The notes beneath the pieces were generated by a model that did not search any database, had not been told where the DNA came from, and worked only from the letters and a program-made list of their open reading frames with translations. Below, piece by piece: positions 1 through 59,808 of a stretch of 64,000 bases of DNA. This stretch comes from a virus (taxonomy: Duplodnaviria > Caudoviricetes): the IMG/VR virus record IMGVR_UViG_2890625426_000001, positions 3,802 through 67,801 of that record. One strand, written 5' to 3'. Numbering within the stretch: the first letter of the stretch is position 1; each line of letters begins with the position of its first letter. A program made the position numbers and the translations under genes.

Positions 1-3000
1 CTGGCCGCGGCCCCTGACCGTGGTGAGGCCGTACCCGAAGAGCCTGACCGTCGTGGAGCGGATGTAGCCGATGGCGCTGGTGGTCACCGTGCCCCGACCA
101 CGCAGCAGCAGTGCCGCTGCCTGGTCGCCCACCTGCAAGGACCCCCGTGCCCCGACCGTCGTCACGCCCCGTCCCCGCAACTGGACGGGGATGCGCAGCT
201 GACCGCGTCCGCTCATTTTTACGGTGCCAGTGCCGCGCAGGTAGGCCGTGAGGCGCGGGCGCCCCGACCCGGTGAGGGTCACCCTGCCCGTGCCGGCGAG
301 GGCGACGGCGTTGGGCGTGGCCGCCTTGTCGGTGTACCGCTGCATGAGTCCGGCCATGGTGGCCGAGGCCAGCGCGGCCAGGCCGGTGCCGAAGTAGGTC
401 TTGTCGGTGGTGCGCCGTGAGTACAGGTACTCCAGGCACGCCGAGGCGAAAGCCGAGTTGGACGGGTCGGCGAGGGAGGCCACACCGATGGCCTGGACGA
501 AGGCCAGGTTGTTGTAACTCTGCGTCGGCAGACCGTTCAGCTCGTACTCGGCCTTGAAGGCCGCGGGATCCCCGCCGGTCTGGCTGCGGGCGAAGGACGC
601 CAGCTTGTTAGCCGCCTTGCGCGCGAGCTCGTTGGCTACCGAGGGGAAGTTGAGGTACTCCAGCAGGACGCCCCAGGGGTGCCGGATGGCGTTATACGAC
701 CACTTGTAGGAGGCGCCGGGCACGACTTGGCCGGTCCGGGTGGACTCGTCGGGCACCATGCCGGTGGCGTAGGTGCGGTCGAAGTAGCCCTGGGCGATGG
801 GGTAGTTGGTCGCGATGAACGTCTCCCAGCGGGGGTCGCTGTCGAGGACCATGTACTCGCGCAGGTGGCCGGGGCGGAAGTAGTCGGCCATGTAGCGGTC
901 GTCGGTCTTGTTCCACTGGTCGCCGTTGAGCATCACGTGGGCCGGTGCCTGGTTGGCGGGCATGAACTCGTACGCCTTGATCGCGGCGGTCATGGCCTTG
1001 GCGGCGGCGGCGTAGTTGATCGCACCGTTGCTGCCGAAGATGCGGTCGGCGAAGATCAGACCAAGGGCGATGTCCTTGTCACCGTCGGTCGCTCCTCCCG
1101 AGCCGGTGACGTTGCCGTTCTTGTCGACCGACCAGTTCATCAGGCCGCGCACGTTGAGGTAGCGGCGGACGTAGGCCCACAGCGCGTCGAAGCGGCTCTT
1201 GGCGAGCGCGTCGTACACACCGGTAGGGAGCTGCGGGTTGCCGTAGATCGCGCAGAGGATGAGCGCGTAGCCCATGCCCTCGGACACCGTGCCCCCCTCG
1301 GTGCCTGCTGCTCCAGAGACGGGGTCGCGCTGGTCGGGGCGCTTGATGCGCATCTCACCGGGACGGCAGCCCTCGGTGGTCAGGCACAGGTCCATGAAGG
1401 CGTCGTAGATGGCCCGTGAGTACTGCCGTGCCTTGGTGACGCCCATGGACGGCGGGGCGGCGGCGTCGTACCAGTCCTTGACGATGGCTCCGGCGGTGCC
1501 CGGAGTGGGTGTCGTCGGGTTGCTCGGAGTGGTGCCCGAGTCCCGTGCGTAGATCGCCGCGGAGTCGATGGTCAGGTTGAAGGGCTGCGGGGTCGATGAC
1601 GTGCGCGCTGCGATGGGGGAGCCGGTGCCGAGCACCAGGGACATGTCCAGACCGAGCGCTCCCGCTGGCTGCTTCGAGGTGTCGCTCAGCTGCCAGGCCT
1701 TGCCTCCGTCGACGTAGAAGACGATGGCGGCGGGGGTCCACTCCACGGTGAGAGTGTGCTGCACGGTGAGGTCCAGCTGCACCGTCGACTGAGTCACCGT
1801 GGCATTGGTGTCCCGGACGTAGAAGATCACTTCGTCCGCTCCGCCGTCGCGGTGTGTGAACAGACCGATGGCGCCGTCGGCGTAGCTGGCGCTCTTCAGC
1901 TCGATCAGCGGTCCATAGCCCGGTCCCCGGTCGATCTTGGCCTTGACTTCCCAGCGGCCGTACTTCTGCAGGTTGGCTGTCTGGGTGAGGCCGCCGACGA
2001 AGTCGCCGGTGCCGATGACCTTGAGGGCGCCGTCGGCGACGATGGCGGCCTGCCCACCGGACACGGCGGGGGTGCTAATTACCGAGTTGCGGATGATGTG
2101 CTCCACTTGCGCGGGCCACACGGTGCCCGCGGGTGGCTCGGTGCCCAGGTCGGACGGGATCCAGTCGCCACCCTGGTTGTACGGGCCGTCGGACTCCCCG
2201 GGGACCTTGCACCAGATCCAGCCGTGACGGCGGCGGACGCCGTCCAGGCCGTTGGGGTTGTATCGAGATCGCGCGCCCAGGGCGATGCCGGAGGGGTTCT
2301 GCCAGTTCTGCGGGTTGGGTGGGGTCTTGGCGCCGTTGCGGGAGGTGTCGATGACGAAGCCGAGCTTGCCCTTGATCACCCCGTACTGGTTCTCCAGGAT
2401 GTCGATGGTGCCGTTGGCGTGCGCTTCGCAGTCCAGTGTCGGGCGGAAGTTCGAGATGTTTTCGTTGATGCCGTCGCAGTCGGCGACGCCGGCCTGGGCG
2501 AGCACGGCGGCCATGTCGGCGGACCCGAGCCACTGCGAGTGTCCGTTGTCGTGGTAGACGCGTGCGTTGATGCACTTCTGGCGAATGCGCGTCACCGTCC
2601 AGCGCATGAGGGTCATGCGCGCGTCGAACTCCGCTTGGCTGATGCGGCCCTCGCGGAGCATGCCGAGGACCTGCGGCAGACCGTCGGGCTCCAGCAGGAT
2701 GACGGTGTAGGCGTTGCCGATGGCGTCCAGCTGCTCGTCGATCCACTGCTTGTACTGCGCCTCGTTGGCGGCCCCGCCGGCCGCCGCGCCCCCGTAGTCG
2801 CGGCTGACGATGTTGTAGAAGATGAAGACGTTGCGCTGCCCCAGCGCTGTGGCCGCCTCCACGACGCGCCGCGTGATCCCGGACCCCAGCGGGATCCAGT
2901 CGACCGCGAGCCACTTGGCTCCCGGGGTGGCGACGATGTAGTCGACGCCCGACACGATGACGGGATCACTGAACTGACTGCGGATGGTGCCGACGGTGTT

Positions 3001-5037
3001 GTCCGGGTCCGCCCACAGGTGCCAGCCGTCGGTGGCCGGCTGACTGCTGCCACCCCCGGCGCCGTTGCTGTAGGGGCGCCAGCGGTTGGTGTTGAGCGAA
3101 GATCCGGTGAAGTCGTCGAAGTCGACGAGGGAGAAGCCGCTGGGCGCCGTGGGTGTGGTCGGCGTCGGAGTGGTGGGCTGCTCCACCTCCGGAATCGTCG
3201 GCGCCGTGGTGGTCCCGGCCAGTCCGGGCTGCATGATGCCCGCTGCCAGCATGGAGGCCATGGCGGCGGTGGAGACGCTGAAGTAGTTCTGCTCGTTGTC
3301 GTTGGCCAGCCAGGTCATCCCGTCGGCTGTCCACTGCGACAGGCTTGAGTCGGTCAGCCCACCGATCGTGTACGCCTGCATGTAGGTGGCGTTGATGTAC
3401 GGGGTGCCGTTGCCGCCGACGTAGGAGTAGTCCATGGCAGGTTCGGCCTGCTGGGCGGCCACGTTGCCGTTGGCGCGCTCCTTCTGCTTCGTCGCCAGGC
3501 GCATGGGCATGTTCTTGGCCAGTGCGTCAGTGTTGGGGCCGTTCCAGACATAGTCGGCCGTGATGCGCCAGGGGTAGCGCGTGTTGTTGTAGCCGAACTT
3601 GGCCTCGCCGCTGGGGGAGCCGTCTTCCTTGATGTCGGTCTGCAGACCGTAGGGGTTGGACTTCGCGCCGCTGTAGAAGGTGCCCAGCGCGAGCGGGAAG
3701 TTCCTGGCGATGATGTCCAGCCAGCGGGAGTCCCCCGTGTGCCGGTAGAACTCGCGGAACCAGCCCGGTGCGAAGTAGTCGGGGTAGTAGCTGTAGCCGA
3801 CGGACTCGTAGCCCCAGTAGTCACCGTTGACGTAGAGGTTGCCGCGACTGCTGTAGCTGAGCGGGATGATCTCCTTGGCGAGGATGGCGTTGATGTACTT
3901 CGTCGCCTCGGCGCCGTAGTCGATGCCCGTCGCGTTGCCCCACAGGCGCGAGGCCCACACGAGCGCGAGGGCGATGTCGAAGTCGCCGTCGCTGGCGCCG
4001 CCGCTGCCGCGCTTGGTGCCGTCGGGCCCGATGTACCAGTGCATCAGGCCGTTCTCGTCCAGGTAGTACTTCACGTATCGCCAGAAGCGGTCGAACCAGG
4101 TCTTGGCCTCAGGGTCGTAGATGCCGGACCCGAGTTGGGAGTTGCCGAAGCCGACGGTGGCGAGCATGCCGTAGCCCATGCCCTCGGACACCGTGCAGTT
4201 ACGGACGTTCTCACCCCCGAAGCCCTGATCGGGTGCGTAGACACGAGCCATGCCGGCGGTTGGGACGCCGCTGGTGGTCCAGGTGAAGGCCTTGAACTTG
4301 TCGTAGCGGTTGCGGGCCTGCTGGCGCAGCAGCGCGAGGCTGGCGTTGGGTCGGACGCCGTAGGGGTACCAGTCGGCCAGGGTGATCCCGGTGCCCGCTG
4401 CCCCGGAGCCTCCCGAAGACCCATCGGTGCTGCCGGTGGACCCGCCGCCAGTAGCGGTCACGGCGTTGTCCCACGTCGACACGCTCGCGTGCCGGGTGCC
4501 TGTCCACGCGTACGTGTTGCCCGGGGTGTTGATCGTTGGCGCTACGTCTGGGGTGTCCCCATCGAAGTAAGGCTGCACTGCCGTACCTGCAGAAAGCACG
4601 AAGTTGGTGAACCACACGCAGCCGTGGCTGGTGACGCCGTATGACCCGAGGCCGAAGCTGATCTCGATGCTCTGCCGAGACGACAGGGTGAAGGTGAGAG
4701 AGTCTCGCGTCCACGGCCGGTTGGCGGTGTAGTGGCGCTGGCCGTAGACGGTGGACGCTGTGTTGCGCACGTACAGGTGGCCGTTCTCCACCAGGCCGTT
4801 GGTCTGCGCCTCCCAGCGCAGGGTGTACGTGCCTGCATCAAGCTGGCCGCGGAAGACGAAGGCTCCGGCATCGCCGGACTGGCCGTCGTAGAAGAACAGC
4901 TTGTAGGTGGTGCCGCCGTTCGGCCCCTCGGTGGGTTGGCGCTCCAGCTTGAAGTTGTTGTTCCCGCCGTGAGTGACAAGACCGGCGAGGTTCAGGCCCG
5001 CCCTCGGGTTGGGGATGAGGTTACGGACAATTGGCAC
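1..5037 (-). CDS. Giant multi-glycoside-hydrolase tail fibre/virion protein (CBM-like, GH8, GH16-like split by GH6, GH8, RGxG-repeat region); 3' end beyond the window
   Basis: Hand translation from GTG at 5037 is open to position 1 (1679 codons). GH8 motifs occur twice: TVSEGMGYG/ASDGDFDIA at about 4190/3990 and TVSEGMGYA/ATDGDKDIA at about 1285/1090. GH6 motifs: LEPDGL, GHSQW, DTSRNG, KVPGESDG. GH16-like strands: DFDDFTGSSLNTNRW, KYGRWEVKAK, EWTPAAIVFYVDG. Pro/Thr linkers separate the domains. The gene directly follows the baseplate genes. Confidence 0.9.
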   Translation of the reverse strand, partial: MPIVRNLIPNPRAGLNLAGLVTHGGNNNFKLERQPTEGPNGGTTYKLFFYDGQSGDAGAFVFRGQLDAGTYTLRWEAQTNGLVENGHLYVRNTASTVYGQRHYTANRPWTRDSLTFTLSSRQSIEISFGLGSYGVTSHGCVWFTNFVLSAGTAVQPYFDGDTPDVAPTINTPGNTYAWTGTRHASVSTWDNAVTATGGGSTGSTDGSSGGSGAAGTGITLADWYPYGVRPNASLALLRQQARNRYDKFKAFTWTTSGVPTAGMARVYAPDQGFGGENVRNCTVSEGMGYGMLATVGFGNSQLGSGIYDPEAKTWFDRFWRYVKYYLDENGLMHWYIGPDGTKRGSGGASDGDFDIALALVWASRLWGNATGIDYGAEATKYINAILAKEIIPLSYSSRGNLYVNGDYWGYESVGYSYYPDYFAPGWFREFYRHTGDSRWLDIIARNFPLALGTFYSGAKSNPYGLQTDIKEDGSPSGEAKFGYNNTRYPWRITADYVWNGPNTDALAKNMPMRLATKQKERANGNVAAQQAEPAMDYSYVGGNGTPYINATYMQAYTIGGLTDSSLSQWTADGMTWLANDNEQNYFSVSTAAMASMLAAGIMQPGLAGTTTAPTIPEVEQPTTPTPTTPTAPSGFSLVDFDDFTGSSLNTNRWRPYSNGAGGGSSQPATDGWHLWADPDNTVGTIRSQFSDPVIVSGVDYIVATPGAKWLAVDWIPLGSGITRRVVEAATALGQRNVFIFYNIVSRDYGGAAAGGAANEAQYKQWIDEQLDAIGNAYTVILLEPDGLPQVLGMLREGRISQAEFDARMTLMRWTVTRIRQKCINARVYHDNGHSQWLGSADMAAVLAQAGVADCDGINENISNFRPTLDCEAHANGTIDILENQYGVIKGKLGFVIDTSRNGAKTPPNPQNWQNPSGIALGARSRYNPNGLDGVRRRHGWIWCKVPGESDGPYNQGGDWIPSDLGTEPPAGTVWPAQVEHIIRNSVISTPAVSGGQAAIVADGALKVIGTGDFVGGLTQTANLQKYGRWEVKAKIDRGPGYGPLIELKSASYADGAIGLFTHRDGGADEVIFYVRDTNATVTQSTVQLDLTVQHTLTVEWTPAAIVFYVDGGKAWQLSDTSKQPAGALGLDMSLVLGTGSPIAARTSSTPQPFNLTIDSAAIYARDSGTTPSNPTTPTPGTAGAIVKDWYDAAAPPSMGVTKARQYSRAIYDAFMDLCLTTEGCRPGEMRIKRPDQRDPVSGAAGTEGGTVSEGMGYALILCAIYGNPQLPTGVYDALAKSRFDALWAYVRRYLNVRGLMNWSVDKNGNVTGSGGATDGDKDIALGLIFADRIFGSNGAINYAAAAKAMTAAIKAYEFMPANQAPAHVMLNGDQWNKTDDRYMADYFRPGHLREYMVLDSDPRWETFIATNYPIAQGYFDRTYATGMVPDESTRTGQVVPGASYKWSYNAIRHPWGVLLEYLNFPSVANELARKAANKLASFARSQTGGDPAAFKAEYELNGLPTQSYNNLAFVQAIGVASLADPSNSAFASACLEYLYSRRTTDKTYFGTGLAALASATMAGLMQRYTDKAATPNAVALAGTGRVTLTGSGRPRLTAYLRGTGTVKMSGRGQLRIPVQLRGRGVTTVGARGSLQVGDQAAALLLRGRGTVTTSAIGYIRSTTVRLFGYGLTTVRGRGQ

Positions 5038-5047: not shown

Positions 5048-5452
5048 TTACTCCGACTCGAAGATCAGCGCGCCTGCAGGCCAGATCACCGGCTGGTTGG
5101 CCGGGATATCGATTCCCCCACCCGGGAAAAGGTGCGCTTCCAGGATGATGCCCGTGCCGGTCTGCGCCGTGTTGGTGCCCCATCCCTTGGCGTTGCCCCA
5201 GGAGGCCGTGCTGGTGCCCTGGTTGATGTCGCTGGTGTTAGCAACGAGGCCGGTGCCGTTGGGTGTCGGGAAGGCTGAGCTGACGTTGACGCGGTTGTAG
5301 CCGCCGCCGGCAACCTCCACGCCACCCGTTCCGTCTTCGTTGGGCATGACGGTAAAGATCATCAGCCAGGGGGTGATCGGCAGTGTGATGCTGAGCGGTT
5401 TTCCGAGGCGGAGCTTCAGGATTTCGTTCTCTAGGAAGTTGAGTGCAGACAC
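5048..5452 (-). CDS. Phage tail fibre/baseplate-associated protein
   Basis: Probable GTG start (VSALNFLENEILK...EVAGGGYNRV...ASWG...AGALIF), a pattern common in small phage tail-fibre adaptor proteins. Lies between baseplate J and the giant fibre gene. Confidence 0.7.
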   Translation of the reverse strand: MSALNFLENEILKLRLGKPLSITLPITPWLMIFTVMPNEDGTGGVEVAGGGYNRVNVSSAFPTPNGTGLVANTSDINQGTSTASWGNAKGWGTNTAQTGTGIILEAHLFPGGGIDIPANQPVIWPAGALIFESE

Positions 5453-5456
5453 GGGC

Positions 5457-6584
5457 TCAGCCTTGTTCGACGGTGATGTTGACGGTGCCAGCCTGCACAA
5501 GTGCGGCGACACCCTCCAGAAAGATGTTATCGGTGGGGTTCACGAGAGCATCGACATAGTCGACGCCCGGGACATTGGAAAGGAGCTGGACCAGCTCGTT
5601 GTAACGGACCACCACGTCCCAGTCCCATGAGGCGGGGCTGAGGTAGGAGCGCACAGCAGCAGCGGCGTCCGCGCGCACGGCCTCCACGTCGAAGCCGGGG
5701 AAGGCCTTCAGGGTGGCTGTCACATCGACCGTGGTGATCGACGGGTTGATCGCGTAGACGACGAAGTTGGCCTCTCGCTGTGACTCGAGCAGCGCAGTCA
5801 CGGCATTGCGGACGACCGTGCCGACCGGGTTCCCCGCAGGATCGACCACGGCGACCGAGATGGTCCGCTCGTTGTCCATCCGGCCGTTGGCCGGGCTGTA
5901 GCCGTCGATGGCGAAGGCGCGATCCACTCCCGGCACATCGAGCGCGAGCGTGGCGAAGTCTTGCGGAACGATGGGCCGCGGGGCCAGCAGCTTGAGGCGG
6001 GCCTGGAGGCGGTTGAGGTACTCGGCGTCGGTCTCCGCGTCCTCACCGCCCACCGGCAGGGTGGTCGATGTGACGGACTTGACGAAGGTCAGGGCGTCCA
6101 TGAGCTGCAGGGGCCCGATCGGCAGGTTGTTGTACGCCTCGCCCGGCTGGACCGACTCCACGTTGATGTACACCTGCGAGAAGCCCGCCGGCACCGTAGC
6201 GGTGCTGAGGGTGCGGAAGAAGGCGAAGGTGTTGTTGCCGAGCGCGTAGCCGATGAGGGTGCCACCGGGGATGGAGTACCCCGAGTCGTCGGTGACCTCC
6301 CAGCTGGTCCGCATCCGGGCGTACGCGGCGTCCACGGGCGGGACGTTGAGCATGGTGCGCCCGAAGTCCCGGTAGATGCTCCGCGGGACCCGGCTGGCCA
6401 CGTCTCGGTTCTCCGCGATGGCGCGGCAGATGACCTCGATCATGGCCACGTCGAGCTGCCCCTCACGGGGTACCCAATCGGGGAAGACCGCAGCCATCGC
6501 TTGCAGGGTGCGGGCCGCCAAGGCGCTGGAGTCGGTACTGAGGGCGGTGAAGGCGCCGTCGTCGCCTACGTCGATGTAGCTCAC
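5457..6584 (-). CDS. Baseplate J/gp47-like wedge protein
   Basis: GGEDAETDAEYLNRL, DFATLALDVPGVDRA and LLSNVPGVDYV motifs; synteny. Confidence 0.9.
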   Translation of the reverse strand: MSYIDVGDDGAFTALSTDSSALAARTLQAMAAVFPDWVPREGQLDVAMIEVICRAIAENRDVASRVPRSIYRDFGRTMLNVPPVDAAYARMRTSWEVTDDSGYSIPGGTLIGYALGNNTFAFFRTLSTATVPAGFSQVYINVESVQPGEAYNNLPIGPLQLMDALTFVKSVTSTTLPVGGEDAETDAEYLNRLQARLKLLAPRPIVPQDFATLALDVPGVDRAFAIDGYSPANGRMDNERTISVAVVDPAGNPVGTVVRNAVTALLESQREANFVVYAINPSITTVDVTATLKAFPGFDVEAVRADAAAAVRSYLSPASWDWDVVVRYNELVQLLSNVPGVDYVDALVNPTDNIFLEGVAALVQAGTVNITVEQG

Positions 6585-8821: not shown

Positions 8822-9468
8822 CAGGCAGGCACCTTGAGGACTTGGCCCACCTTGAGGCTTCGCGGATCACGGACGCCCGACGCGTTGGCAATGTCCTGCC
8901 ACCGGGCTGAGGAGCCGTACATCTTCTGCGCGATGCCGCTCAGGGTGTCCCCGGCCTTCACGGTGTACGTGCGCTCCCCGCCCGACGATCCGGTCGATGC
9001 TGCCGCTGGCGGTGCTGCAGCTGCCGCGGGGGAGCTGTTGTGCACGACGACCTGAGGCGCGTTGTGCTGGCGGAAGGTCAGCGTCATGGACTGACGACAC
9101 CTTCGCCCGTCGTCGCGGTACTCGTCGTCGTCCTGGTACTCGATGCCCACAAGAATCCAGGCGAGGTCGGTGCGCTTGACGTTGGGGCCGGCGAGGCGCA
9201 GCACGTCGGGGATCTTGGGCGTGGGGATGCGCCGGTCCTCGATCAGCTTGATGATCGGCTCGATGTCGCCGTCGGGGTACTGGTCGATGGCCACGTCGAT
9301 GGTCTGCTCGAACAGCTCCACGCCCGAGAAGTGGGTGTAGGCGTACGTGCGGGGACGGTCGATAGAGTCCCACACGGCGCCGCCAGCACTGATGTACGGC
9401 GCTCGCTCGCCCAGGTCCACGGAGATGACGAACGGGCCAGTGGCCAGGAAGATGCCCAGCTTGCTCAT
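8821..9468 (-). CDS. Tail tube initiator-like protein with C-terminal LysM domain
   Basis: YTVKAGDTLSGIAQKMYGSSARWQDIANAS...LKVGQVLKVP is a LysM domain; follows the tape measure gene. Confidence 0.88.
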   Translation of the reverse strand: MSKLGIFLATGPFVISVDLGERAPYISAGGAVWDSIDRPRTYAYTHFSGVELFEQTIDVAIDQYPDGDIEPIIKLIEDRRIPTPKIPDVLRLAGPNVKRTDLAWILVGIEYQDDDEYRDDGRRCRQSMTLTFRQHNAPQVVVHNSSPAAAAAPPAAASTGSSGGERTYTVKAGDTLSGIAQKMYGSSARWQDIANASGVRDPRSLKVGQVLKVPA

Positions 9469-24307: not shown

Positions 24308-25942
24308 CTACTTCTGCATCCAGGTGGTGCCGTCGTAGACGAACTCGTAGACGGTGCGGCCTCCCGCGGCCGGTGCGGTGAACGGCGTGGAGAACCGGAA
24401 CTTGACGCCCCAGGTCACAGTACCCATGGCTCCCGACGAGCTGTTCGTGATGTCGACGGTCAGCACCGCGCCAGGGAACGCGTTGGACGGGTTGGTGATG
24501 GTGAAGGCGTTGCCGTCGGTGACGACGAGCCTCTTGTAGGCGCTGGACGATGCGTCGGGCGTGATCGTGGCGGCGTACACCAGGGTGCCGATGCCGTTCG
24601 GGAAGAGGAACGAACTCGTGTCCGAGAGGAGGGAGTATGCGCTGACGCTGGTCCCGGTGATGCGGTTGCCGAAGTACTGGTGGCCGCCAGCGGTGATGCT
24701 CTCCTTGATGCCGAACGTCGTCGTCTTGACCGTCTGGTCATCGGTGATGCGGTTGAGGCCGACGACGTTGTTCGTGCAGCCTGACAGGTTGATGCCTGGG
24801 TACTGCGGGCCGTCCTTCTGCTTGCCGACATTGCGGATGTTGTTGCCGACGATGACGTTGTCGTTGCCGGCGGACCAGATGCCCGAGTTCCACGCGCCGT
24901 CGACGGTGTTGTTGTTGCATGTTGAGTGCGCGCAGCTGACGCTGATGCCGTTGTCTTGGCTGTCGAACACGTCGTTGTGATCGATGGTGGCGTAGTCGCA
25001 GCCCGCGGTGAGGCCGATCGCTTCGAAGCCTGTGGTGGACGGCGCCATGCGGATCTTGTTGTTCGTAATGGTGGAGTGCGTCGGGAAGCCGGTACCGGCC
25101 GAGCCGTTGAGGCCAACGCCCATGCCACCCTTGATCCCGTCCATCTCGCAACGGTCGACGATGCACCAGGGCGAGTTGTCCTTGATGGTGACCCCGAAGC
25201 CCGTCTGCCCGTCATTGAGCCCGGTGTTGTCGATGCGACAGTCGAGCACCCGGCTGTAGGGGGTGCCGCTGATGCCCGTAAGCCCTTGGTAGACGATGCC
25301 AGCATCGCCCAGGTCGTGGATGTACAGGTCGCGGCAGGTGATGCGCGAGCCGTTGGTGACCTGGACACCCTTGAGCGATGCCGCCGCCGTGCCGAAGTTG
25401 CCGTCCAGTCCAAAGCCTTGGAGCGTCACGTTCTTGACCGCGGCGCCGGATGTGCCGAGGAACACCGCATTCGCTACGCCGGGGCCTGCTTTCACCGAAG
25501 TGAGGTAGCGGCCGAGGCTGAGGATCGTGATGTCACTGACGAGCGTCACTGCCGTGTTGAGCAGGTACGTGGCACCCACCGGGATCAGCACCGCACCCTT
25601 GACCGCCCCTGCTGCATTGATCGCTGCCTGGAACGCCGGGGAGTCGTTGGTGACCCCATCGCCCTTGGCGCCGTAGTCCCGGACGTTGAAAGCGAGATCG
25701 CTCTTCTTGAAGCCCAGCGCGTAGGAGAGGACCCCACCCGGGACATCGAGGGGGAGGGCAGAGGCGTCGTTGGGATCGAGAACGTAGGAGCCGGCTGGCG
25801 CGTCCGCGAAGGCGCCGAAGAAAATCCTGCCCGTCTGCGAGCCGGTCGCTACGAGCTTGCTGCCATCGGGGTTGTCACCCGTCGGACCGCCGGCTCCACC
25901 ACCGCCCTGCTGGGGTGGGCGCGTGATGGGTCCGAAGCCCAT
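24308..25942 (-). CDS. Pectate-lyase-like beta-helix spike/depolymerase
   Basis: FNVRDYGAKGDGVTNDSPAFQAAINAA; repeated IxNNxI/GI rungs; FVYDGTTW C-terminus. Confidence 0.9.
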   Translation of the reverse strand: MGFGPITRPPQQGGGGAGGPTGDNPDGSKLVATGSQTGRIFFGAFADAPAGSYVLDPNDASALPLDVPGGVLSYALGFKKSDLAFNVRDYGAKGDGVTNDSPAFQAAINAAGAVKGAVLIPVGATYLLNTAVTLVSDITILSLGRYLTSVKAGPGVANAVFLGTSGAAVKNVTLQGFGLDGNFGTAAASLKGVQVTNGSRITCRDLYIHDLGDAGIVYQGLTGISGTPYSRVLDCRIDNTGLNDGQTGFGVTIKDNSPWCIVDRCEMDGIKGGMGVGLNGSAGTGFPTHSTITNNKIRMAPSTTGFEAIGLTAGCDYATIDHNDVFDSQDNGISVSCAHSTCNNNTVDGAWNSGIWSAGNDNVIVGNNIRNVGKQKDGPQYPGINLSGCTNNVVGLNRITDDQTVKTTTFGIKESITAGGHQYFGNRITGTSVSAYSLLSDTSSFLFPNGIGTLVYAATITPDASSSAYKRLVVTDGNAFTITNPSNAFPGAVLTVDITNSSSGAMGTVTWGVKFRFSTPFTAPAAGGRTVYEFVYDGTTWMQK

Positions 25943-28759: not shown

Positions 28760-29053
28760 TCAGTCCTCGGTCTCGATCCACACGTCCCGGCCGAGCCGGT
28801 CCACGGAGTCGACGGGGCCGACGATCCACCACAGGCCGTCCTCAAGGTCCGCTGGGCGGGCCGGGTAGCCCTTGGAGGCGTCGTAGGTGACCACCGTGTT
28901 GGTCGACGACACGGCCTTGATTGCCGCCACGTCGTCGATGAGCGAGTTGATCGCCGCCACCATGACCGCGGCCGACGTGTTGAGCTTGGGCCGCGTGGTG
29001 TCCCGTAGGACCTCGTCGCCCTGGATGACTTCGACGGTGATCTTGTTCGTCAT
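28760..29053 (-). CDS. Small fibre adaptor; N-terminus paralogous to that of 29050-30966
   Basis: VIQGDEVLRDTTRPKLNT...AINSLIDDVAAI; C-terminal YPARP...WWIVGP...DVW. Confidence 0.7.
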   Translation of the reverse strand: MTNKITVEVIQGDEVLRDTTRPKLNTSAAVMVAAINSLIDDVAAIKAVSSTNTVVTYDASKGYPARPADLEDGLWWIVGPVDSVDRLGRDVWIETED

Positions 29054-30966
29054 GGGCGGTAGTGGAAGAAGATCGAGGCGAAGTTCGCCGTGGTCGTGCC
29101 GTCTCCGCCGGAGCCCATGATGCGGATGAGCACGTCACCCTTGGCCGCGTCGGGCACCAGCGCCCAGTCGGCGTTGTTGCGGTAGCCCACGGAGTCGACG
29201 GTGAGGGTGGCCAGCTGCATCGAGGTCCAGCCCGTCGCCCCGGACAGGTCCGTGGTGTAGTCCACGCTGAGGCTGGCGCCGGCCGCTCCACCACCGAGGA
29301 CCTGGGCGGTCAGCTTGGCGAAGTTGGCCATGCGGGTGTCCATCTGCATGTAGAAAACCGACCCGAGGCTGCCGTTGCCGCCGAAGCGGGTGAAGGCCGA
29401 GGGGATGGCCCACGACTGGTTGGTGATGACCGGGACGCTACGGCCCTTGCCGGTGCGCTGGTCGGGGTAGCTGCGCACCTTGTCGGTGGGCGGGCCCTTC
29501 CAGAAGACCGTCTCGTCGCTGATGCGGACGATCTGGCTGTTGGTGCTGCTCAGGCCGCCAGTGAGGCCCCAGATGTGCCCGCCGGTGATGGACAGCTCGG
29601 TGGTGTAGGTGGCGAAGACCCCCCACCGGGGCTGCCAGACCTGGTTCTGCTGGTCGTCGTCCTCGACAGCCGTCATGACGCCCACCAGGTCGACCGCGCA
29701 CACCCGGTTGGAGGCGGTACCCCGCAGCGCGATGGCCGCGTACCCGCCGTCGCCCGCGCCGGTGTTCGGCCCGTCACGGCGGAAGTCACCGCCGACAATC
29801 GACACACGCGAGCGCGGCCCTGAAGCGGTGATGAGGACCCCGTCCTTGGCATTGCGGTCGGTGTAGCAATTGGTCAGGCTCACGCCGCCGTTGCCGCCAC
29901 CGATGATCCCACTGCCGGTGTTCCCACTGATGAGGAAGCCGTTCTCGTTGATGTTGTACGCCGCGATGCAGTTGGAGATGGGGAGCTGACCGGCGCCCTT
30001 GATGTAGAAGCCGCCGCCCTGGTTGGAGACGGCCAGGTTGTTGGTCAGGTAGGCGTCGGTGTAATTCTCCAGCCACCAGCCCCACTTGTCGTCCATGGCC
30101 GAGGTGCCGGCCGACCACGAGGAGCAGAAAGCGAAGCCGCCGCCACGGGGAAAGACCTGCCCCCGGCTGGACTGGTAGGGCAGCATCGCGACGTTGTGGC
30201 CCGAGGCCTGCAGGAAGGCCATCTGGTCGAACTTCCAGCCCTTGACCTCACCGAGCAGCGCCACCCCGTTGATGGGCGTGGCGCTCGTGCCGCTGCCGAT
30301 CTGCTTGGAGTTGCCGTCGATACTGAAGCTGCGGAAGAAGCAGTTGCCGGTCAGCACGTCGTCGTTCAGCTCACGGTCGACGCCGAGCAAGATGGCCTGA
30401 CCCTGGAAGCTGTTGAGCGGGCGGATCGAGCAGGGACCGGCGGTGCCGGTGTTGTACGTCCACCAGCCCGAGCCGGTGCCCATGATGCCCTGGCGCTCCT
30501 TGGTGGGCTGTACGGGGCGCGAGACACCCGCGATGCCGTCGTTGAGGGTGAGCAGGCCACCCTTGTCCAGCGCGTCGAAGGCCTCGTCGAAGCCGGGGGA
30601 GCAGTCCACGACTCCGTCCATGGCGTAGCCGAGGTCGTTGACCAGGTTGAGGGTGGACCAGTGCCGGCGCACCAGGTTCACCAGGAAGCCATTGGCGTCC
30701 TTATCGGCCTTGCCGTTGATGCGGGTGCTCAGCGCGGTGTCGGCCTGCGCTCGAGTCGTCGCCTCGGCGTCGATGCTGGCCTGCAGCTGCTCCTCGCCCA
30801 AGGTCGGTGGGGGAGTCTGCTGCATCGAGGCGACCACGTCGATCAGCTCGTTGACCGCGCTGCCGATCTGGGACACGTTGGTGTTGATGTCGTCACGGGA
30901 CTTGTCTCGGAGGCCGTCGCCGCCCTGGATGATCGTCAGCTGCGGCTTGTTGATCGTCGTCGCCAC
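29050..30966 (-). CDS. Beta-helix spike/depolymerase
   Basis: Probable GTG start 30966 at the portal stop; coiled-coil N-terminus; DLGYAMDGVVDCSPGF; rungs such as SIDGN, NGFLI, DGVLI. Confidence 0.8.
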   Translation of the reverse strand: MATTINKPQLTIIQGGDGLRDKSRDDINTNVSQIGSAVNELIDVVASMQQTPPPTLGEEQLQASIDAEATTRAQADTALSTRINGKADKDANGFLVNLVRRHWSTLNLVNDLGYAMDGVVDCSPGFDEAFDALDKGGLLTLNDGIAGVSRPVQPTKERQGIMGTGSGWWTYNTGTAGPCSIRPLNSFQGQAILLGVDRELNDDVLTGNCFFRSFSIDGNSKQIGSGTSATPINGVALLGEVKGWKFDQMAFLQASGHNVAMLPYQSSRGQVFPRGGGFAFCSSWSAGTSAMDDKWGWWLENYTDAYLTNNLAVSNQGGGFYIKGAGQLPISNCIAAYNINENGFLISGNTGSGIIGGGNGGVSLTNCYTDRNAKDGVLITASGPRSRVSIVGGDFRRDGPNTGAGDGGYAAIALRGTASNRVCAVDLVGVMTAVEDDDQQNQVWQPRWGVFATYTTELSITGGHIWGLTGGLSSTNSQIVRISDETVFWKGPPTDKVRSYPDQRTGKGRSVPVITNQSWAIPSAFTRFGGNGSLGSVFYMQMDTRMANFAKLTAQVLGGGAAGASLSVDYTTDLSGATGWTSMQLATLTVDSVGYRNNADWALVPDAAKGDVLIRIMGSGGDGTTTANFASIFFHYRP

Positions 30967-33083
30967 TACTGGCTGCTCTTCCGGTCGTAGCGACAGACGA
31001 TCGTGCCTCTGCAACGGCCCCGGCCCTTGCACTCTTTGTACCCGCCCGAGGGGTAGTCCTTCTCGGCAGCCGTCAGGCTGTCGTACTCCTTGCCGTCCCG
31101 AGCGGCGCACGCGGAGCAGGTGGCCGAGTCCAGCAGCTCGCTGGCGAAGACGGCGTCGGGCTCGTCCTGCTGGAAGGCGTAGAAGCGGGCGCTGTTCTGT
31201 GCTTGGGTCAGCGCGCCGCCCAGCTGCTCGCGTGGGTAGGCATCCGACAGCTCGTTGAGGTAGTCGGCCACCTCGGCGGCGATCTCGGCCGCGGCCAGGC
31301 CCCCGCCGGCACGGGCCAGAGCCTGCTGGCTGGCCGTGGTGCTGATGCTCTGGCTCATGACCGTGTCCAGCGCGTTGGCTCGGGACACGAGCGAGGTCAC
31401 CAGGGGAGTGATGTCCGGCCGCTCGATGATCACACCCTGTGCCGCGGCCTCGGCGATCGCCTGGTCCAGAGCTGCCTCGGCGACGGCCACCATGGCGTCG
31501 GTCAGCTGCACGGCGCCCGAGGCTGACGTGCGGATGGCGGCCAGCGCGGCGAGGTCGTTGGGGTCGATGCTGGCGATGACGGCCCGGAGGTCTTCGACCT
31601 GGGCGAACTTCACCTGAGTCAGCCAGTCGGCCAGCAGGCTGTCGACGGTGGTCGTGAAGGTCTTCTCCATGGCCTCGAAGTCGGTGCCTGCGGCGAGCTC
31701 CACATCCGAGGGGTCGCGATGGCCCACCGCCGGCGTCGGTGCCTCCGCAGCGCGCACCTCGATGCGCTCCCGGCGCCGTGGTCGTTCCTTGGCCTTGAGG
31801 TCGACCAGCTTGGGCGCGGCCAGGGGGTCCGGGTCGTCCGGGTCGACCTCGGGCATCTCCGGCAGCTGATAGCGGTCGCGCAGGAAGCCCTCGATCTCGT
31901 CGCCCGGGGTGATCAGCCCGGCCTGGGTCAGGGCGACCAGGTCGACGACCGAGGAGCTGTCGTCGTCGTCGCGGTCGTAGGCCAGCAGCGGGACCGGCCC
32001 GTCGGCGTTCGCGAAGTTGAGGTCGATGAGGTCCTCGACGACGTGCTCGTTGGTGATGTCGATGTACTCGTTGGCCAGGGCCTCCTGGGCCAGTAGGAAG
32101 AGGTCGGTGAAGGTCTCACCCAGCGCGCGTGAGCCGGTCTCGGTGGACCCAAGGTCCATGTACTGGCTCATGAACGACTTGGACATCTGCTGGTCGTGGT
32201 AGCGCAGCGTGTTGATCGCATCCGGGAGCGAGCCCTGCACACCCTGGAACGTCAGTGACGCTCCGTAGGGGAGTGCACCGCCAGCGGAGTCGCCAGCCCG
32301 GTAGGACTGGGCCAGCGCCGCGAGCATCTGCATCTCTTGCTGCGTGGCGTTCTCACCAGCGGTCGCGATGGGCACACCGGCGCCGTTGCGCTCGATGTTG
32401 ATCGCGTTGACCCGGATGACCCGGTCCTTGATGATCCAGTCCTTGTAGCACTTGCGCAGCACCGAGCGTCCCCGCCAGTTGCTGGCTTCCTGCTCGTGGA
32501 TGTAGGCCACCAGCTTGTCGACCGGGATGTAGGGCCCCTGGGCTGAGGAGATGATGCCGCCGCGGTGGTTTTGGTCGGGCCACTGGCGGATGCCCTTGAG
32601 GCCGCCGTCGCGCGCCACGTCGATCTCCGAGATGGTCAGCGGCATGCGAGGAGCCAGCTTGCGCAGCAGCAGCCGACCGGTCGCGGCGTCGTCGTTCTCG
32701 TAGCGGTAGACCTGCTCGAAGAACATGAAGCCGTAGATCAGGCTGAGCAGGGCGTTGGCCAAGTGCTTGTCGTGGCTGAAGCGGTCCCGGGTGCGTCCCT
32801 TGGGCTGCTCCGCGTCCTGCACGGGCAGGTTGAAGGCCGTGGCGACCAGGTCTACCCACTCGTCCGGTGCCCCGTTGGGGTCGATGTACCAGTGGTAGCG
32901 CCGGATGGGCAGGGTCTGGGCGAGCAGGAGGCCGGCGATCTGCGCGTCGTTGCGCATGGCGTTGTACACGGCGATGTCCGCTGGCGGGAGCAGCTCGGGG
33001 ACCGTCTCCAGGGTGTCCCCGAAGAACGACCAGGGCATCGAGCTGAGGTTGCCGTGTCCGACTTCGGTTGTTGGCTTGGGCAC
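30966..33083 (-). CDS. Portal protein (DUF935/Mu gp29-like) fused to a MuF-like minor head domain
   Basis: YNAMRNDAQI, YGFMFFEQV, GRSVLR, GSRALG portal motifs; C-terminal SELLDSATCSACAARDG...CKGRGRCRG. Confidence 0.88.
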   Translation of the reverse strand: MPKPTTEVGHGNLSSMPWSFFGDTLETVPELLPPADIAVYNAMRNDAQIAGLLLAQTLPIRRYHWYIDPNGAPDEWVDLVATAFNLPVQDAEQPKGRTRDRFSHDKHLANALLSLIYGFMFFEQVYRYENDDAATGRLLLRKLAPRMPLTISEIDVARDGGLKGIRQWPDQNHRGGIISSAQGPYIPVDKLVAYIHEQEASNWRGRSVLRKCYKDWIIKDRVIRVNAINIERNGAGVPIATAGENATQQEMQMLAALAQSYRAGDSAGGALPYGASLTFQGVQGSLPDAINTLRYHDQQMSKSFMSQYMDLGSTETGSRALGETFTDLFLLAQEALANEYIDITNEHVVEDLIDLNFANADGPVPLLAYDRDDDDSSSVVDLVALTQAGLITPGDEIEGFLRDRYQLPEMPEVDPDDPDPLAAPKLVDLKAKERPRRRERIEVRAAEAPTPAVGHRDPSDVELAAGTDFEAMEKTFTTTVDSLLADWLTQVKFAQVEDLRAVIASIDPNDLAALAAIRTSASGAVQLTDAMVAVAEAALDQAIAEAAAQGVIIERPDITPLVTSLVSRANALDTVMSQSISTTASQQALARAGGGLAAAEIAAEVADYLNELSDAYPREQLGGALTQAQNSARFYAFQQDEPDAVFASELLDSATCSACAARDGKEYDSLTAAEKDYPSGGYKECKGRGRCRGTIVCRYDRKSSQ

Positions 33084-47311: not shown

Positions 47312-48682
47312 CTACTTCCCGACGGGCAATGCCAGAGGCTCCGGCGCCGCCTCGATGGCCTGCGTGACCTCCACGGTCTGGCGAGTGCCCCACCCGGTCT
47401 TCCAGCACGTGGCGATGGCGTAGATGCGCAGGGGCCGGAGCACCAGCGTCGACCAGGCCAGCGCGAGCGGGGTCATGGCGAAGGTGGCGAGTTGCCAGCG
47501 GAACGACACGTCGCTGCGGCGGATCGTCAGGTACTTCAGGGCAGTCAGGTAGCCCACCAGGCTGGAGAACACCAGAAGCATCGGCGCGAGCTCGTGGTTG
47601 ACGGCCGGCTGGTAGGCCAGCAGGTACACCAGCACGGTGCCGACAACGAAGTAGCTCACCCAGGACATGAAGTGCTCCCAGTACCCGAAGCTCACGATGG
47701 GCAGGTACTTGAAGCGCCAGATCGAGCGGATGGTCGACCCTCGCAGCCAGCGCAGCTGTTGACGGAGGTGGTGGCTCACCCGGGCCGGGAGCACCGTGAA
47801 CGCCAAGCTGGTGGGCTGCTGAACGGTACGACCCTTGAGGTAGGCGAAGAGCGTCAGCAGGCTGTCGTCGCTGAACTGCACACCGCGGCCCATGAAGGTC
47901 TCGTTCTCGTACGCCGGGATGGCCTCACGCACCACGTCGGCCCGGTAGACCGCGAAGCTGCCCGAGTTGACCAGGACCGAGCGCAGGCTGGAGAGCGCGC
48001 TGCGGACCGAGAGCTGGAAGACCAGGAACCACAGGTCGCTCAGGCGCGAGACGATGTTCTCCCGGGCGTTGCGGGCCACGCAGACCGCGGCCACCGAGGA
48101 CACTCGCTCGTCGGCGAAGGGCAGCATCGCCTCCTCGAGTGCGGTGGGGGAGAGCACCACGTCGGAGTCCATCGTGGCGAAGTAGTCGGCCTGGGTGTCG
48201 TTGGCGAAGGTCACGAGCTGGGCGCTGCGCTTGCCGCCGTTGGCCGCCTTGCGGACCCAGGAGCCCCTGATGCCCGCCTCGGTGGCCACGCCACGCCACC
48301 AGACCTTGACCTCCTCGTAGGACGCGGCGTCGGAGCAGTCGTCGACGACCTGGACGTAGTCCGGCCGGCGGGTCTGTGCTGCCAGGGAGGCAAGGACCTC
48401 ACGGACGATGGCCGGGTCCTCGTTGTACAGCGGGATGTTGAGGGTGACCCACTTGGCGTCGAGGACTGCCCGCTGGGCGTCGGTGGCCTTGTAGACCGGC
48501 TCCAGCCAGGCTAGGGACAGGTGCCAGATCAGCGAGCCGAACATGACGGCGAAGACGATCGACAGACCGTGGGGTGCGGTGCCGTAGCCCGCGAGGACGG
48601 CGAGGTGGTGGGTCGTCCACGCCAGGGCCACCAGCAGGAAAACACCCGCGAGCGGAAGGACGCGGCTGCGGGCGTAGGAGAC
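47312..48682 (-). CDS. Processive GT2 glycan synthase (hyaluronan synthase/NodC-like)
   Basis: IPLYNED, VDDCS, NGGKRSAQ, MDSD, SGSFAVYR, FSDD, QQLRW, WGTR; two N-terminal and several C-terminal TM helices; start uncertain (48682 or 48631). Confidence 0.9.
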   Translation of the reverse strand, partial: VSYARSRVLPLAGVFLLVALAWTTHHLAVLAGYGTAPHGLSIVFAVMFGSLIWHLSLAWLEPVYKATDAQRAVLDAKWVTLNIPLYNEDPAIVREVLASLAAQTRRPDYVQVVDDCSDAASYEEVKVWWRGVATEAGIRGSWVRKAANGGKRSAQLVTFANDTQADYFATMDSDVVLSPTALEEAMLPFADERVSSVAAVCVARNARENIVSRLSDLWFLVFQLSVRSALSSLRSVLVNSGSFAVYRADVVREAIPAYENETFMGRGVQFSDDSLLTLFAYLKGRTVQQPTSLAFTVLPARVSHHLRQQLRWLRGSTIRSIWRFKYLPIVSFGYWEHFMSWVSYFVVGTVLVYLLAYQPAVNHELAPMLLVFSSLVGYLTALKYLTIRRSDVSFRWQLATFAMTPLALAWSTLVLRPLRIYAIATCWKTGWGTRQTVEVTQAIEAAPEPLALPVGK

Positions 48683-48705
48683 GGAGGGGACTCCGTCGGG
48701 TAGAG

Positions 48706-48864
48706 CTAGGCCTGGGTCGCGCTCTTGCCGGACCGGAAGAAGGCCCGGATCGCCAAGGCCCCCGCTGCTACTGCCACCCCGCCCGCCAGAAGGAGCGCCC
48801 ATCCCGGAAGAATGGTCCCCCCGATGATGATGCCTGCGAAGGGGAGAGTTTTGCCGTAGTCCAT
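48706..48864 (-). CDS. Small membrane peptide (52 aa) preceding the GT2
   Basis: MDYGKTLPFAG, hydrophobic helix, basic tail RAFFRSGK. Confidence 0.75.
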   Translation of the reverse strand: MDYGKTLPFAGIIIGGTILPGWALLLAGGVAVAAGALAIRAFFRSGKSATQA

Positions 48865-49012
48865 GAATGAAGAGTAATGCAGCAAAGACCGCACAAACAA
48901 GGAAGGTGGCTGCAAGGTGACGAGCGTGGGTAATGGGTAATGAGGTGTCTGTAGGCATTGGCTCGATTTTGGCAGACCATTCGCGCTTGTTGCATGTCCC
49001 CGCCCCTACTCT

Positions 49013-50086
49013 TTGGCCATGGCAAGCCGTAACGAAATACTCAACAAGCTCCTCACCCTTGAAGGCCCGAAGCGCGACGCATTCACCCGGGCGACCTTCG
49101 ATTTGGGCATGTCCGACGACAAGACCGCCGCGGCCCTGGTCAGCGCCAGTGTGATCCTGCGCTTCTCCAGCACCTACCAGCAGGTGGTCAAGGACTGGGC
49201 GGCGGCGTTGGAAGCTGGGTCGGTGACCACACCCGCGACGACCTCGGAGCTGTACGTGGCCGAGGTGCTGGCCAAGTCCATGGGGCATGCCCGCCTGGCC
49301 GCGGTACCTCAAGCCGTGTGGGTCAACGGTCCGGGCGACATCGACAACGCCCGGCGAGTGGCTCAGGACGCCAAGAGCAAGGGTCAGATCCCGCAGTTCG
49401 TCGTCTACTGGGCCGTCAACCGCGACAACGGGCAGTACTCCGCTGGTGGAGCGCCCGACAGCGCGAGCTATCGCAGCTTCGTCGACTCGCTGGCAGTGGC
49501 CATCGGGGGGACCGGTGCTCTGATCAACCTGGAGCCCGACGCCCTGGTGCTCTTCAACGGCACCCCGTCGACGCGCTACGCCGACCTGGCCTACGCAGGC
49601 CGCGCCCTGCTTGCGGTCGGCGCCAAGGTCTTCCTGTCCGCCGGGCACTCCGACTGGCACAGCGTGGAGGAGATCAAGAAGCGAGCCGAGCAGGTCGGCA
49701 TGGCCAACTTCACCGGCTTCGCCCTTAACGACAGCAACTACCGGCCCATGAGCGAGATCGTCCCCTTCGGCGAGCGGTTGTGGTCGGCCACCAACAAGCC
49801 CTACATGGTCGACACCTCCCGCAACGGTGACAGCCCCATCCCGCTGCCCAAGACTTACTGGGACCCGGACTGGTGCAACGTCGCCAGCCGGCGCTTCGGG
49901 CTGGCGCCGCGCCTCGGCCCGGTAGCCGGGGGAGAGCACTGCTTCGGCGTGTGGTGGGTCAAGCACCCCGGCGAGAGCGACGGCACCTACAACGGCCTGA
50001 CAGGCAAGGTGAGCGATGCTCCGGGTGCCGGCCAGTGGTTCGAGGCCTACGCCGACGACATGGAGCGCAACTCGGGCTGGTCCTGA
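49013..50086 (+). CDS. Glycoside hydrolase family 6 (endo-beta-1,4-glucanase-like), no signal peptide
   Basis: NRDNGQYSAGG, LEPDAL, GHSDW, NDSNY, DTSRNG, WCN, KHPGESDG, AGQWF. Confidence 0.92.
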   Translation: MAMASRNEILNKLLTLEGPKRDAFTRATFDLGMSDDKTAAALVSASVILRFSSTYQQVVKDWAAALEAGSVTTPATTSELYVAEVLAKSMGHARLAAVPQAVWVNGPGDIDNARRVAQDAKSKGQIPQFVVYWAVNRDNGQYSAGGAPDSASYRSFVDSLAVAIGGTGALINLEPDALVLFNGTPSTRYADLAYAGRALLAVGAKVFLSAGHSDWHSVEEIKKRAEQVGMANFTGFALNDSNYRPMSEIVPFGERLWSATNKPYMVDTSRNGDSPIPLPKTYWDPDWCNVASRRFGLAPRLGPVAGGEHCFGVWWVKHPGESDGTYNGLTGKVSDAPGAGQWFEAYADDMERNSGWS

Positions 50087-55876: not shown

Positions 55877-56227
55877 TCACTCAGGCGGGGCATCGTGTAC
55901 TTCCTTGGGCAGTGGGTAGTTCAACAGATCACGACCCGCACGATGCAGAGCCACGATCCACTTCCGCTCTGCGGCATAGGCGTCCTTGCGGGTGCCCCAG
56001 AAGCGCTCAAGCTCCTTGATCGTCGGTCGACGGCCCGTAGCCAGTTGTTGCTTGACCCAGGCCGACCGCGCCGAACGCTTGCCTAGATCGCCGCGACAGT
56101 GCTCTTCGAGCCTGATTCCTAACGGGGCTGCCGTCTGTCCGACATACCGTTCCTCGCCAGAGTCTGGATCGCAGAGGGCATAGATCGTGTACTGCTGTGC
56201 GGCCGTGCTCGATCGCTGTCCGGTCAA
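55877..56227 (-). CDS. GIY-YIG nuclease
   Basis: IYALCDP...RYVGQT...RLEEH...AERKWI...LLN. Confidence 0.8.
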   Translation of the reverse strand: MTGQRSSTAAQQYTIYALCDPDSGEERYVGQTAAPLGIRLEEHCRGDLGKRSARSAWVKQQLATGRRPTIKELERFWGTRKDAYAAERKWIVALHRAGRDLLNYPLPKEVHDAPPE

Positions 56228-58874: not shown

Positions 58875-59808
58875 ATGGCTTCATCATCATCTTACGTTCA
58901 ACCGCTCACCAAAGAGCAGGACGATTTTCTCCGCCAGGTGTGGCAGGACGCCCAGCCGTCACGGTGGAAGACCGGCGACGACTTCCCGACGTTCGTCGCC
59001 GACCTTATGGAGGGGTACGACAACCCCGGCATCACCCAGGACCAGCTGGACGAGTTCGTCACCGAGCTGGCCGAGGGGCTGCGCTGCAGTGGCTGCGCCA
59101 CCGACGAAGGCGTCAGCGAGGGCGGCGAGTGTGGCGAGTGCTCGCTGGATGGGGAAGGCTGATGTCCGAGCGGCTGCAGCTGTTCGTCATCGCCCACCCG
59201 GCTACCGAGGTGCGCGAGGTCAACGGAGACACCGAGCGCATCGACTCGATGATGTACCTGTCCAAGGCGGGTCAGAGCATCGAGCGGGGCAGCGCTGCCC
59301 CGCTCGGCCGGGGCTGGGTCGACGGCCTGGACTCGAGCGTCGAAGTCTTCGCGGGCACTTCCGCCCAGGCAGTCGCCGAGGGGTGCCGCTACCTCCTCAG
59401 CCTTTACGGCGGCGGGCGCCTCTTGGACTATCGACAGGCCCAAGCGCTAGACCAGAGGGAGAAGGCAGAACGACAGGCACTCGCTGACGAGTGGCTGCGC
59501 CTCGATGAGACGACCGACCAGTACAACCGCCGCACACGCGGCGAAGGATTCGAACTATGAAGGCAGCCCCCAACCCGGACGATCCCTCAAGACTGGACTT
59601 CCAGCACGAGGACGAGCGCTACTCCCTCTTCGCGCCTACCCAGCTGCGCCCCTGGTGGGTCGCGCAGAAGGGCGATGACAAGCGACCGCACTACGTTGAA
59701 TGGTCGCCCGGGGTCAACGAGCATCAGGCGATGCGCATGATCTTCCCCACACACGTACAACGAGCGTTCAGAGAGGCGCTCCAGCAGGACCAAGGATTGA
59801 CCTTCTAG
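58875..59808 (+). other. Three coupled hypothetical genes (58875-59162 with CxxC..CxxC; 59162-59560; 59557-59808)
   Basis: AAGGAG RBS; TGATG/ATGA overlaps. Confidence 0.7.

Follow-up and report, generated by a model that had tools for sequence, protein, structure and literature searches.

The window analysed here, a 64-kb stretch of viral DNA (G000:C111:30758-94757), comes from an actinobacterial assembly of 4.86 Mb in 698 contigs with ~67% G+C. Its positions 1-5037 are read on the minus strand as a single unbroken open reading frame (ORF), which begins with a GTG at 5037 and exits at the start of the window. The full frame encodes 1904 amino acids (aa), 1679 of them within the window (P0001). 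From the N-terminus, the protein consists of an N-terminal domain, a glycoside hydrolase (GH) domain of family GH8, the first strands of a GH16 domain, a GH6 domain, the remainder of the GH16 domain, a second GH8 domain, repeats and a domain resembling P2 gpI (Table 1). The last of these, of ~225 aa, falls outside the window; its sequence was taken from the database copy P0002. The gene model of P0002 (1659 aa) begins at aa 246 of the ORF, which affects the region 4303-5037 of the window. The N-terminal domain upstream of that start has homologues that open both the ORF on the IMG/VR contig L004 and the metagenome protein P0004. Because the 245 aa upstream are homologous to the N-termini of these two proteins, the P0002 gene call is probably too short, and the true start is probably the GTG at 5037, for a protein of 1904 aa. 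No Pfam match was found for aa 1-240 at E 0.1. Both GH8 copies carry the SEGMGY and [ST]DGD motifs, which we take to be the catalytic motifs of the family.

Table 1. Features of the giant reading frame and of two neighbouring genes, in window coordinates.
Feature	Position	Strand	Evidence
N-terminal domain, ~200 aa (aa 1-200)	4438..5037	-	without Pfam family
GH8 copy 1 (aa 218-612)	3202..4386	-	PF01270 E 1.5e-28, 100.3 bits, segment alone; TVSEGMGY, GASDGD
Pro/Thr-rich linker (aa 613-631)	3145..3201	-	translation
GH16 N-piece, first two beta-strands and native b1-b2 loop (aa 632-664)	3046..3144	-	custom profile 3-25
Inserted GH6 (aa 665-985)	2083..3045	-	PF01341 E 2e-35
GH16 C-piece, rest of jelly roll (aa 986-1166)	1540..2082	-	custom profile 32-207, 101.6 bits, E 5.9e-33
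Dead motif GAIGLFTH (aa 1055-1062), replacing GEIDxxE	1852..1875	-	
Pro/Thr-rich linker (aa 1167-1183)	1489..1539	-	translation
GH8 copy 2 (aa 1184-1585)	283..1488	-	PF01270 E 2.4e-24, 86.4 bits; phrog_1696 'tail' E 1.2e-32
Arg/Gly-rich short repeats (aa 1586-1679)	1..282	-	translation
Gp80-like fibre protein gene	5048-5512	-	PF23140 E 1.8e-12
Baseplate_J gene	5457-6584	-	PF04865 E 2e-23

A GH6 domain inserted within a GH16 domain

A first-pass annotation of this DNA had proposed that a whole GH6 domain sits inside a catalytically dead GH16-like fold. The motifs that it quoted were all found, where it had placed them, in the one minus-strand ORF: PSGFSLVDFDDFTGSSLNTNRWRPY at aa 632-656 (window 3070-3144), VADGALKV at 2017-2040, KYGRWEVKAK at 1936-1965, GAIGLFTH at 1852-1875, HTLTVEWTPAAIVFYVDG at 1705-1758 and LTIDSAAIYA at 1546-1575. 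Pfam places GH6 at aa 700-956 of P0001 (E 5.8e-34) and GH16 (PF00722) at aa 1007-1137, the latter with 26.4 bits (cut-off 22) over model positions 23-159 of 175. The Pfam GH16 model begins past the first strand, and a split is undetectable by Pfam alone. An ordinary GH16 of the host (L003 832-1932) is matched by Pfam only from aa 193, with its N-terminal strand lying near aa 150-160. We compiled 66 uninterrupted GH16 relatives of P0007, the closest contiguous homologue, and built a profile from 58 rows (57 relatives and the P0007 domain). On P0001 this profile gave two complementary matches, its positions 3-25 at aa 640-662 and 32-207 at aa 995-1165. The GH16 domain is thus non-contiguous: after profile position 25, 321 residues intervene before it resumes at position 32. 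The split matches of a hidden Markov model that the first-pass annotation had anticipated on either side of GH6 were accordingly obtained with the custom profile, and not with Pfam, whose model omits the first strand. P0004 is split in the same manner (profile 1-25 at aa 444-468 and 36-207 at aa 784-945) and has in addition a full-length match to an intact GH16 just upstream, at aa 213-429.

The short N-piece was given a control of its own. From the N-terminal strands of 23 uninterrupted homologues in other genomes, with the window and L004 left out, we built a mini-profile and ran it over every six-frame ORF of the entire host genome that reaches 30 aa (56,150 ORFs, 9.14 million residues). 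Residues 641-672 of the giant ORF ranked second (E 1.1e-4, 23.6 bits), the first rank being taken by a genuine host GH16 (E 6.7e-7). The N-piece match therefore exceeds chance. When aligned to 23 uninterrupted GH16 domains, the window row shows single-column gaps only, and an F and a W are invariant. Its identity is 53% to L032 and 51% to L035. This likeness extends to the Gly/Ser stretch ahead of GH6, for which a hinge had been proposed. The sequence is present (YSNGAGGGSS), but it is not an added linker: the uninterrupted L032 reads YSAGAGGGNS at the equivalent position, and the stretch is a native GH16 loop.

The same boundaries emerge from a multiple alignment (A5, made with MAFFT) of the 555-aa segment, its L004 homologue and 25 uninterrupted GH16 domains from genome loci. 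MAFFT, unaided, opens one gap of ~325 columns in 25/25 of the uninterrupted rows, exactly over GH6, and does so again in a separate run; F18 and W28 are invariant. A profile of A5 matched solved GH16 beta-1,3-glucanases from end to end (E 2.3e-39), inclusive of the N-terminal strand and of GEIDIME. With mixtures of GH6-only and GH16-only homologues, MAFFT misplaced GH16 rows onto GH6 columns, and such alignments were not used. The GH6 domain is found as an autonomous unit elsewhere, in many proteins such as P0009 (285 aa) and in a separate gene of the window. Because the flanks match one contiguous domain in relatives and the insert is autonomous elsewhere, the GH6 is confirmed as a true domain insertion in a homologue of the laminarinase-type GH16 enzymes.

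Active sites and modelled fold of the nested unit

The two domains differ in the state of their active sites. As reference for GH16 we used 57 active-type relatives, with 53 columns conserved to at least 85%. The catalytic E, D and E are present in 100%, 96% and 100% of these relatives, whereas the window copy has A1056, G1058 and T1061; L004 has A, G and S at these positions, and the nested copy of P0004 has E, R and S. The window GH16 is, judged by these residues, a pseudo-enzyme from which nucleophile, helper Asp and acid/base are gone, as the first-pass annotation had held. Of the 53 conserved columns, 29 are kept and 24 changed. The kept columns correspond to the structural core (YGRWE, W1100, P1102, DG1110-1111). 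The changed ones include W1048K, P1049S, R1067A, H1075R, W1093Q, Q1133S and D1135V, and the changes at 1048, 1049, 1067 and 1075 are common to all three nested copies. The aromatic and charged residues that changed are presumably of the kind that lines the GH16 sugar cleft. Two uninterrupted chromosomal GH16 domains, L040 (G031) and L043 (G300), carry a degenerate AEIGLAA in which the Asp and the second Glu are lost. Since these are degenerate and yet uninterrupted, pseudo-GH16 domains also emerge independently of insertion.

The GH6 domain, on the other hand, is apparently a catalytically competent beta-1,4-glucanase. In a scan of the segment it covers positions 19-300 of 305 of its Pfam profile, and it matches the solved chains 6fao_A (E 9.4e-36) and 1tml_A (E 1.8e-29). 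Its D747, D785, D830 and D950 align with D79, D117, D156 and D265 of 1tml, the T. fusca endoglucanase E2 chain, and all four are kept in L004 and in P0004 as well. We take these four aspartates to have the catalytic roles of those of T. fusca Cel6A (D79, D117, D156, D265).

The fold of the segment (aa 626-1180) was modelled with AlphaFold2 on alignment A5. Segment residues 1-30 were predicted with a local distance difference test score (pLDDT) of 87-95, with strands at 10-16 and 28-33, and residues 371-545 with 85-98. A VIA-align search of 48,161 representatives of the PDB placed GH16 enzymes at the top: 8va4_A with Z 24.3 and a root-mean-square deviation of 2.4 A over 208 residues (model range 1..541), and 3dgt_A with Z 23.1 over 211 residues (model range 2..542). 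The C-piece has 175 residues, fewer than the 208-211 aligned, and the N-piece is therefore included. Foldseek likewise returned GH16 laminarinases as its top matches (E 4e-12). The assembly of both flanks into one beta-jelly roll, which the first-pass annotation had proposed to examine by such predictions, is thus borne out in the model, in a manner that depends on the alignment. The connections are short: some 5 residues separate the native loop from the start of GH6, and ~9 lie between the end of its last helix and strand 3, so that GH6 is carried on two connections of ~5-10 residues.

Occurrence and descent of the nested arrangement

A search of 1.84 billion representative proteins gave 2112 matches to the segment at E <=0.001, of which only two span it from end to end: the protein itself and P0004 (metagenome, 1732 aa, 37% identity, E 8.3e-94). 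A third nested copy lies on the IMG/VR contig L004 (70% identity), and the three nested proteins align collinearly. A scan of the genome contigs gave no further nested copies. In metagenome contigs, 175 stretches matched a search pattern and 25 of these encode relatives, all of which (25/25) cover query residues 74-361, that is GH6, only. In 29 other genomes of the same family no nested copy turned up; 19/29 have GH6-only matches. GenBank phages gave no DNA match and three records with GH6-only protein matches. A word-index search of proteins of 923-2939 aa returned, besides the protein itself, only P0003, in which GH6 and GH8 occur without GH16. GH16 as such was matched in 83/301 genomes; this tally takes in three unpublished genomes, from which no loci were used. 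Searches of the open-access PMC/bioRxiv literature yielded no account of GH6 nested naturally in GH16, nor of tail proteins of this sort. The nesting of one glycoside hydrolase inside the fold of another, dead one seems to be very rare.

The GH16 C-piece is 67% identical to that of L004 and 38% to that of P0004; for GH6 the values are 73% and 32%. Because the identities match those of GH6, the pseudo-GH16 is, on the sequence comparison, under constraint comparable to that on GH6 and kept by selection. The descent of the C-piece was traced in a FastTree phylogeny (LG+gamma) of 88 GH16 C-pieces over 176 profile columns, from which rows with <100 aligned residues were dropped. The three nested copies group together in a single clade (support 0.954), and this clade falls within another (support 0.997) that holds the uninterrupted GH16 of the tail protein P0153, of P0007 and of P0004 (domain 1). 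This topology is consistent with GH6 having been inserted once, in a GH16 lineage of phage tails. In P0004, the intact GH16 directly ahead of the nested one reads DGEIDLFE, which suggests that a GH16 duplication came first and that insertion and decay followed. The relatives also differ by tandem shuffling: P0007 (from Kocuria) is arranged GH16-GH8-GH6, P0003 is arranged GH6-GH8, and L004 is without the first GH8.

Tail context and probable role of the nested unit

Baseplate_J is encoded two genes upstream of the giant ORF, and genes for an M23 peptidase, tape measure, sheath, capsid and Mu-type portal lie nearby. The neighbourhood is the tail module of a contractile-tail (myovirus-type) prophage. 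All GH8 (2/2) and all GH6 (2/2) domains of the 4.86-Mb genome sit on this prophage contig. The Tail_P2_I family (PF09684) is matched by the C-terminus of the 70%-identical L004 homologue with 21.2 bits, above the cut-off of 20.6. Because that homologue passes the cut-off and the protein itself bears a weak resemblance, we read the giant protein as a baseplate-wedge protein with enzyme domains and a P2 gpI-like C-terminus.

Taken as a whole, the data are probably best explained by a baseplate-attached multi-glycosidase protein, in which GH6 is nested in a dead GH16 that was retained as a rigid holder. The data show that GH6 is nested and intact, that GH16 has lost its catalytic residues, that the gene stands in a tail context, and that the arrangement is conserved in three lineages and has a single origin. 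The gpI-like C-terminus would anchor the protein on the baseplate wedge, and GH8, GH6 and GH8 would degrade a beta-glucan-type polysaccharide, on the surface of the actinobacterial host or extracellular, as the phage adsorbs. GH6, inserted in the surface loop that joins the first two strands of the jelly roll to the third, would have the dead GH16 sandwich as a stiff two-point mount. The insertion would have taken place once, in a tail-protein GH16 lineage, probably after a GH16 duplication as in P0004 had relaxed selection on catalysis. A holder role is plausible because the GH16 is kept under selection.

Several results weigh against this reading. Within the full GH16 profile, the N-piece match is weak (4.8 bits). 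AlphaFold2 run on the single sequence of aa 626-1180 was uninformative (pLDDT 36). In the model made with A5, GH6 came out poorly, large parts of it having pLDDT <50, because only two rows of A5 span GH6; the model is therefore silent on the GH6-GH16 interface and on the idea of a rigid holder. The docking of the N-piece depends on A5, whose uninterrupted rows already bridge the gap, and the model is to be taken as showing compatibility of the N-piece with the jelly roll rather than as independent proof. Finally, the C-terminus of P0002 itself reaches only 17.9 bits with Tail_P2_I, below the cut-off. The weak N-piece score, together with a Pfam GH16 match that begins at model position 23, would also be expected if there were no nesting at all and a 25-residue match by chance stood ahead of a truncated GH16, or if the assembly were chimeric. 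We hardly credit this explanation. The N-strand profile singles out the N-piece genome-wide behind only a genuine GH16, the 51-53% identity to the N-strands of uninterrupted homologues includes the loop, and Pfam misses the N-terminal strand of an ordinary host GH16 too. The split recurs in P0004 and L004; an assembly chimera was rejected, since the arrangement comes from three independent sources. An intein-like or mobile insert was likewise rejected, GH6 being an ordinary enzyme domain without such features.

The part played by the dead GH16 allows for other views. It could be a functionless, decaying relic of recombination that serves as a mere long linker, and the loss of catalytic and many other conserved residues would be in keeping with this, as would the free shuffling of modules among P0003, P0004, P0007 and L004, which differ in the order of GH6, GH8 and GH16. 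Yet a relic is very improbable for a domain that persists in three lineages, although overall identity falls to 37%, matches GH6 in conservation, retains the 29 core columns and is modelled with confidence. A glycan-binding scaffold that positions GH6 was the role given to GH16 in the first-pass annotation, and a lectin-like or carbohydrate-binding module (CBM) feeding or positioning the host polysaccharide for GH6 deserves more weight, although we hold it to be rather unlikely. Its fold is intact in the model and conserved, and K1048, S1049, A1067 and R1075, common to the nested copies, could mark a selected new surface. Pseudo-GH16 domains without catalytic residues serve as glucan sensors in the insect GNBP/bGRP proteins, which also counts in favour of this role. 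However, the 24 changed columns include W1048, W1093, R1067, H1075, Q1133 and D1135, and because so many family-conserved columns are changed, the ancestral binding cleft would appear to be largely dismantled. Of that earlier proposal, the positioning of GH6 by a holder conserved like GH6 itself stays plausible, and the binding of glycan is not supported. More likely, the GH16 holds GH6 structurally in place on a depolymerase with several enzyme domains.

We also considered, as a bolder and decidedly improbable alternative to the rigid holder, that the nested unit is a composite machine, in which the remodelled former cleft, whose derived residues are fixed in the three nested lineages, and the short double tether make up a new polysaccharide-guiding surface or an allosteric clamp. 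Such a surface or clamp would line up the host beta-glucan chain with the GH6 active site. If true, this would mean that an equivalent of engineered domain-insertion enzymes evolved naturally on a phage baseplate.

Proteins are known to evolve by domain insertion, among other routes, and modularity is a familiar trait of phage tail depolymerases. The nested protein is a rare, conserved domain insertion that combines known kinds: modular phage depolymerases, domain insertion and pseudo-enzymes. Solved GH16 laminarinases and beta-1,3-glucanases (9voq, 3atg, 2hyk, 3dgt, 8va4) share the whole-domain fold with its N-terminal strand, but they are contiguous and have E-x-D-x-x-E, whereas the window copy is split by 321 residues and is without the three catalytic residues. 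P0007, P0003 and gp72 of Streptomyces phage Gilgamesh ('glycoside hydrolase') are large, modular tail proteins of related actinobacterial prophages that draw on the same set of GH6, GH8 and GH16 modules, and the GH16 of P0007 is the sister group to the nested copies. In these proteins, however, the domains stand in tandem and are not nested, and the P0007 GH16 keeps both glutamates (DGEIRFFE).

The nearest precedent for a hydrolase within a GH16 jelly roll is GluXyn-1, an engineered Bacillus hybrid (PDB 1axk) in which an autonomous glycoside hydrolase is inserted in a GH16 jelly roll that, by the title of its report, keeps a native-like fold (Ay, Gotz, Borriss & Heinemann 1998 PNAS 95:6613, cited in PMC11013033 and PMC4737653). 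Its chain 1axk_B aligns with the GH16 part of our model at a VIA-align Z of 15.9. GluXyn-1 is man-made, whereas the arrangement described here is natural, with GH6 as insert, a dead GH16 as host and what we read as a phage baseplate protein as setting. The insert of GluXyn-1 is reportedly a GH11 xylanase, and its host glucanase is said to stay active. To our knowledge, tolerance of the GH16 jelly roll for such an insert is otherwise known from this engineered protein only.

Among phages, the nearest natural precedent is found in siphophages of lactic acid bacteria, whose 'evolved' Dit and Tal proteins have CBMs inserted in a baseplate beta-sandwich (PMC6669499, PMC7533335, PMC10688798; PDB 5ly8). 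There too, an extra carbohydrate-directed domain is placed in a baseplate beta-sandwich for contact with the host surface. The two differ in that a non-catalytic CBM in the galectin-like domain of Dit is replaced here by a full enzyme in a pseudo-GH16, and siphophages of Firmicutes by a contractile-tail prophage of an actinobacterium.

The nested protein provides a natural test of the tolerance of a beta-jelly roll for a 321-residue insert and an example of a pseudo-enzyme kept as architecture. For enzyme engineering, it marks the b1-b2 loop of GH16 as a permissive insertion site; for phage biology, it suggests that a surface polymer of the beta-glucan type acts as a barrier or receptor in this genus of actinobacteria.

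Some further features of the protein and of its surroundings are of note. The repeats between GH8 copy 2 and the gpI-like domain are RGxGxVTT-like, and L004 has another repeat, F[RT]DTG..., at the corresponding place (about 9000-9400); a stalk of variable make-up is a possible reading of this region. Further along, at 56224-57354 and 59700-61013, the window encodes a Gp3-like recombination directionality factor and an ArdC-N/M78 protein, and on their account the mobile element extends over most of the 64 kb. Within the prophage (window 47315-50086) there is also a membrane glycosyltransferase of family GT2 (548 aa) that resembles NodC and processive beta-glycan synthases. It matches Pfam GT2 families and scores 118.7 bits with TIGR04242, far under the cut-off of 550. 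Its divergent partner is a stand-alone GH6 gene at 49013-50086 on the plus strand (E 1.7e-32), and the pair could bring about lysogenic conversion of a surface glycan of the kind cut by the tail enzymes. Two right-handed beta-helix proteins, both pectate-lyase-like, are encoded on the minus strand, one at 24308-25942 (PF12708, PF13229) and one at 29050-31110 (Beta_helix 23.5 bits, below the cut-off), and are possible extra depolymerases or tailspikes.

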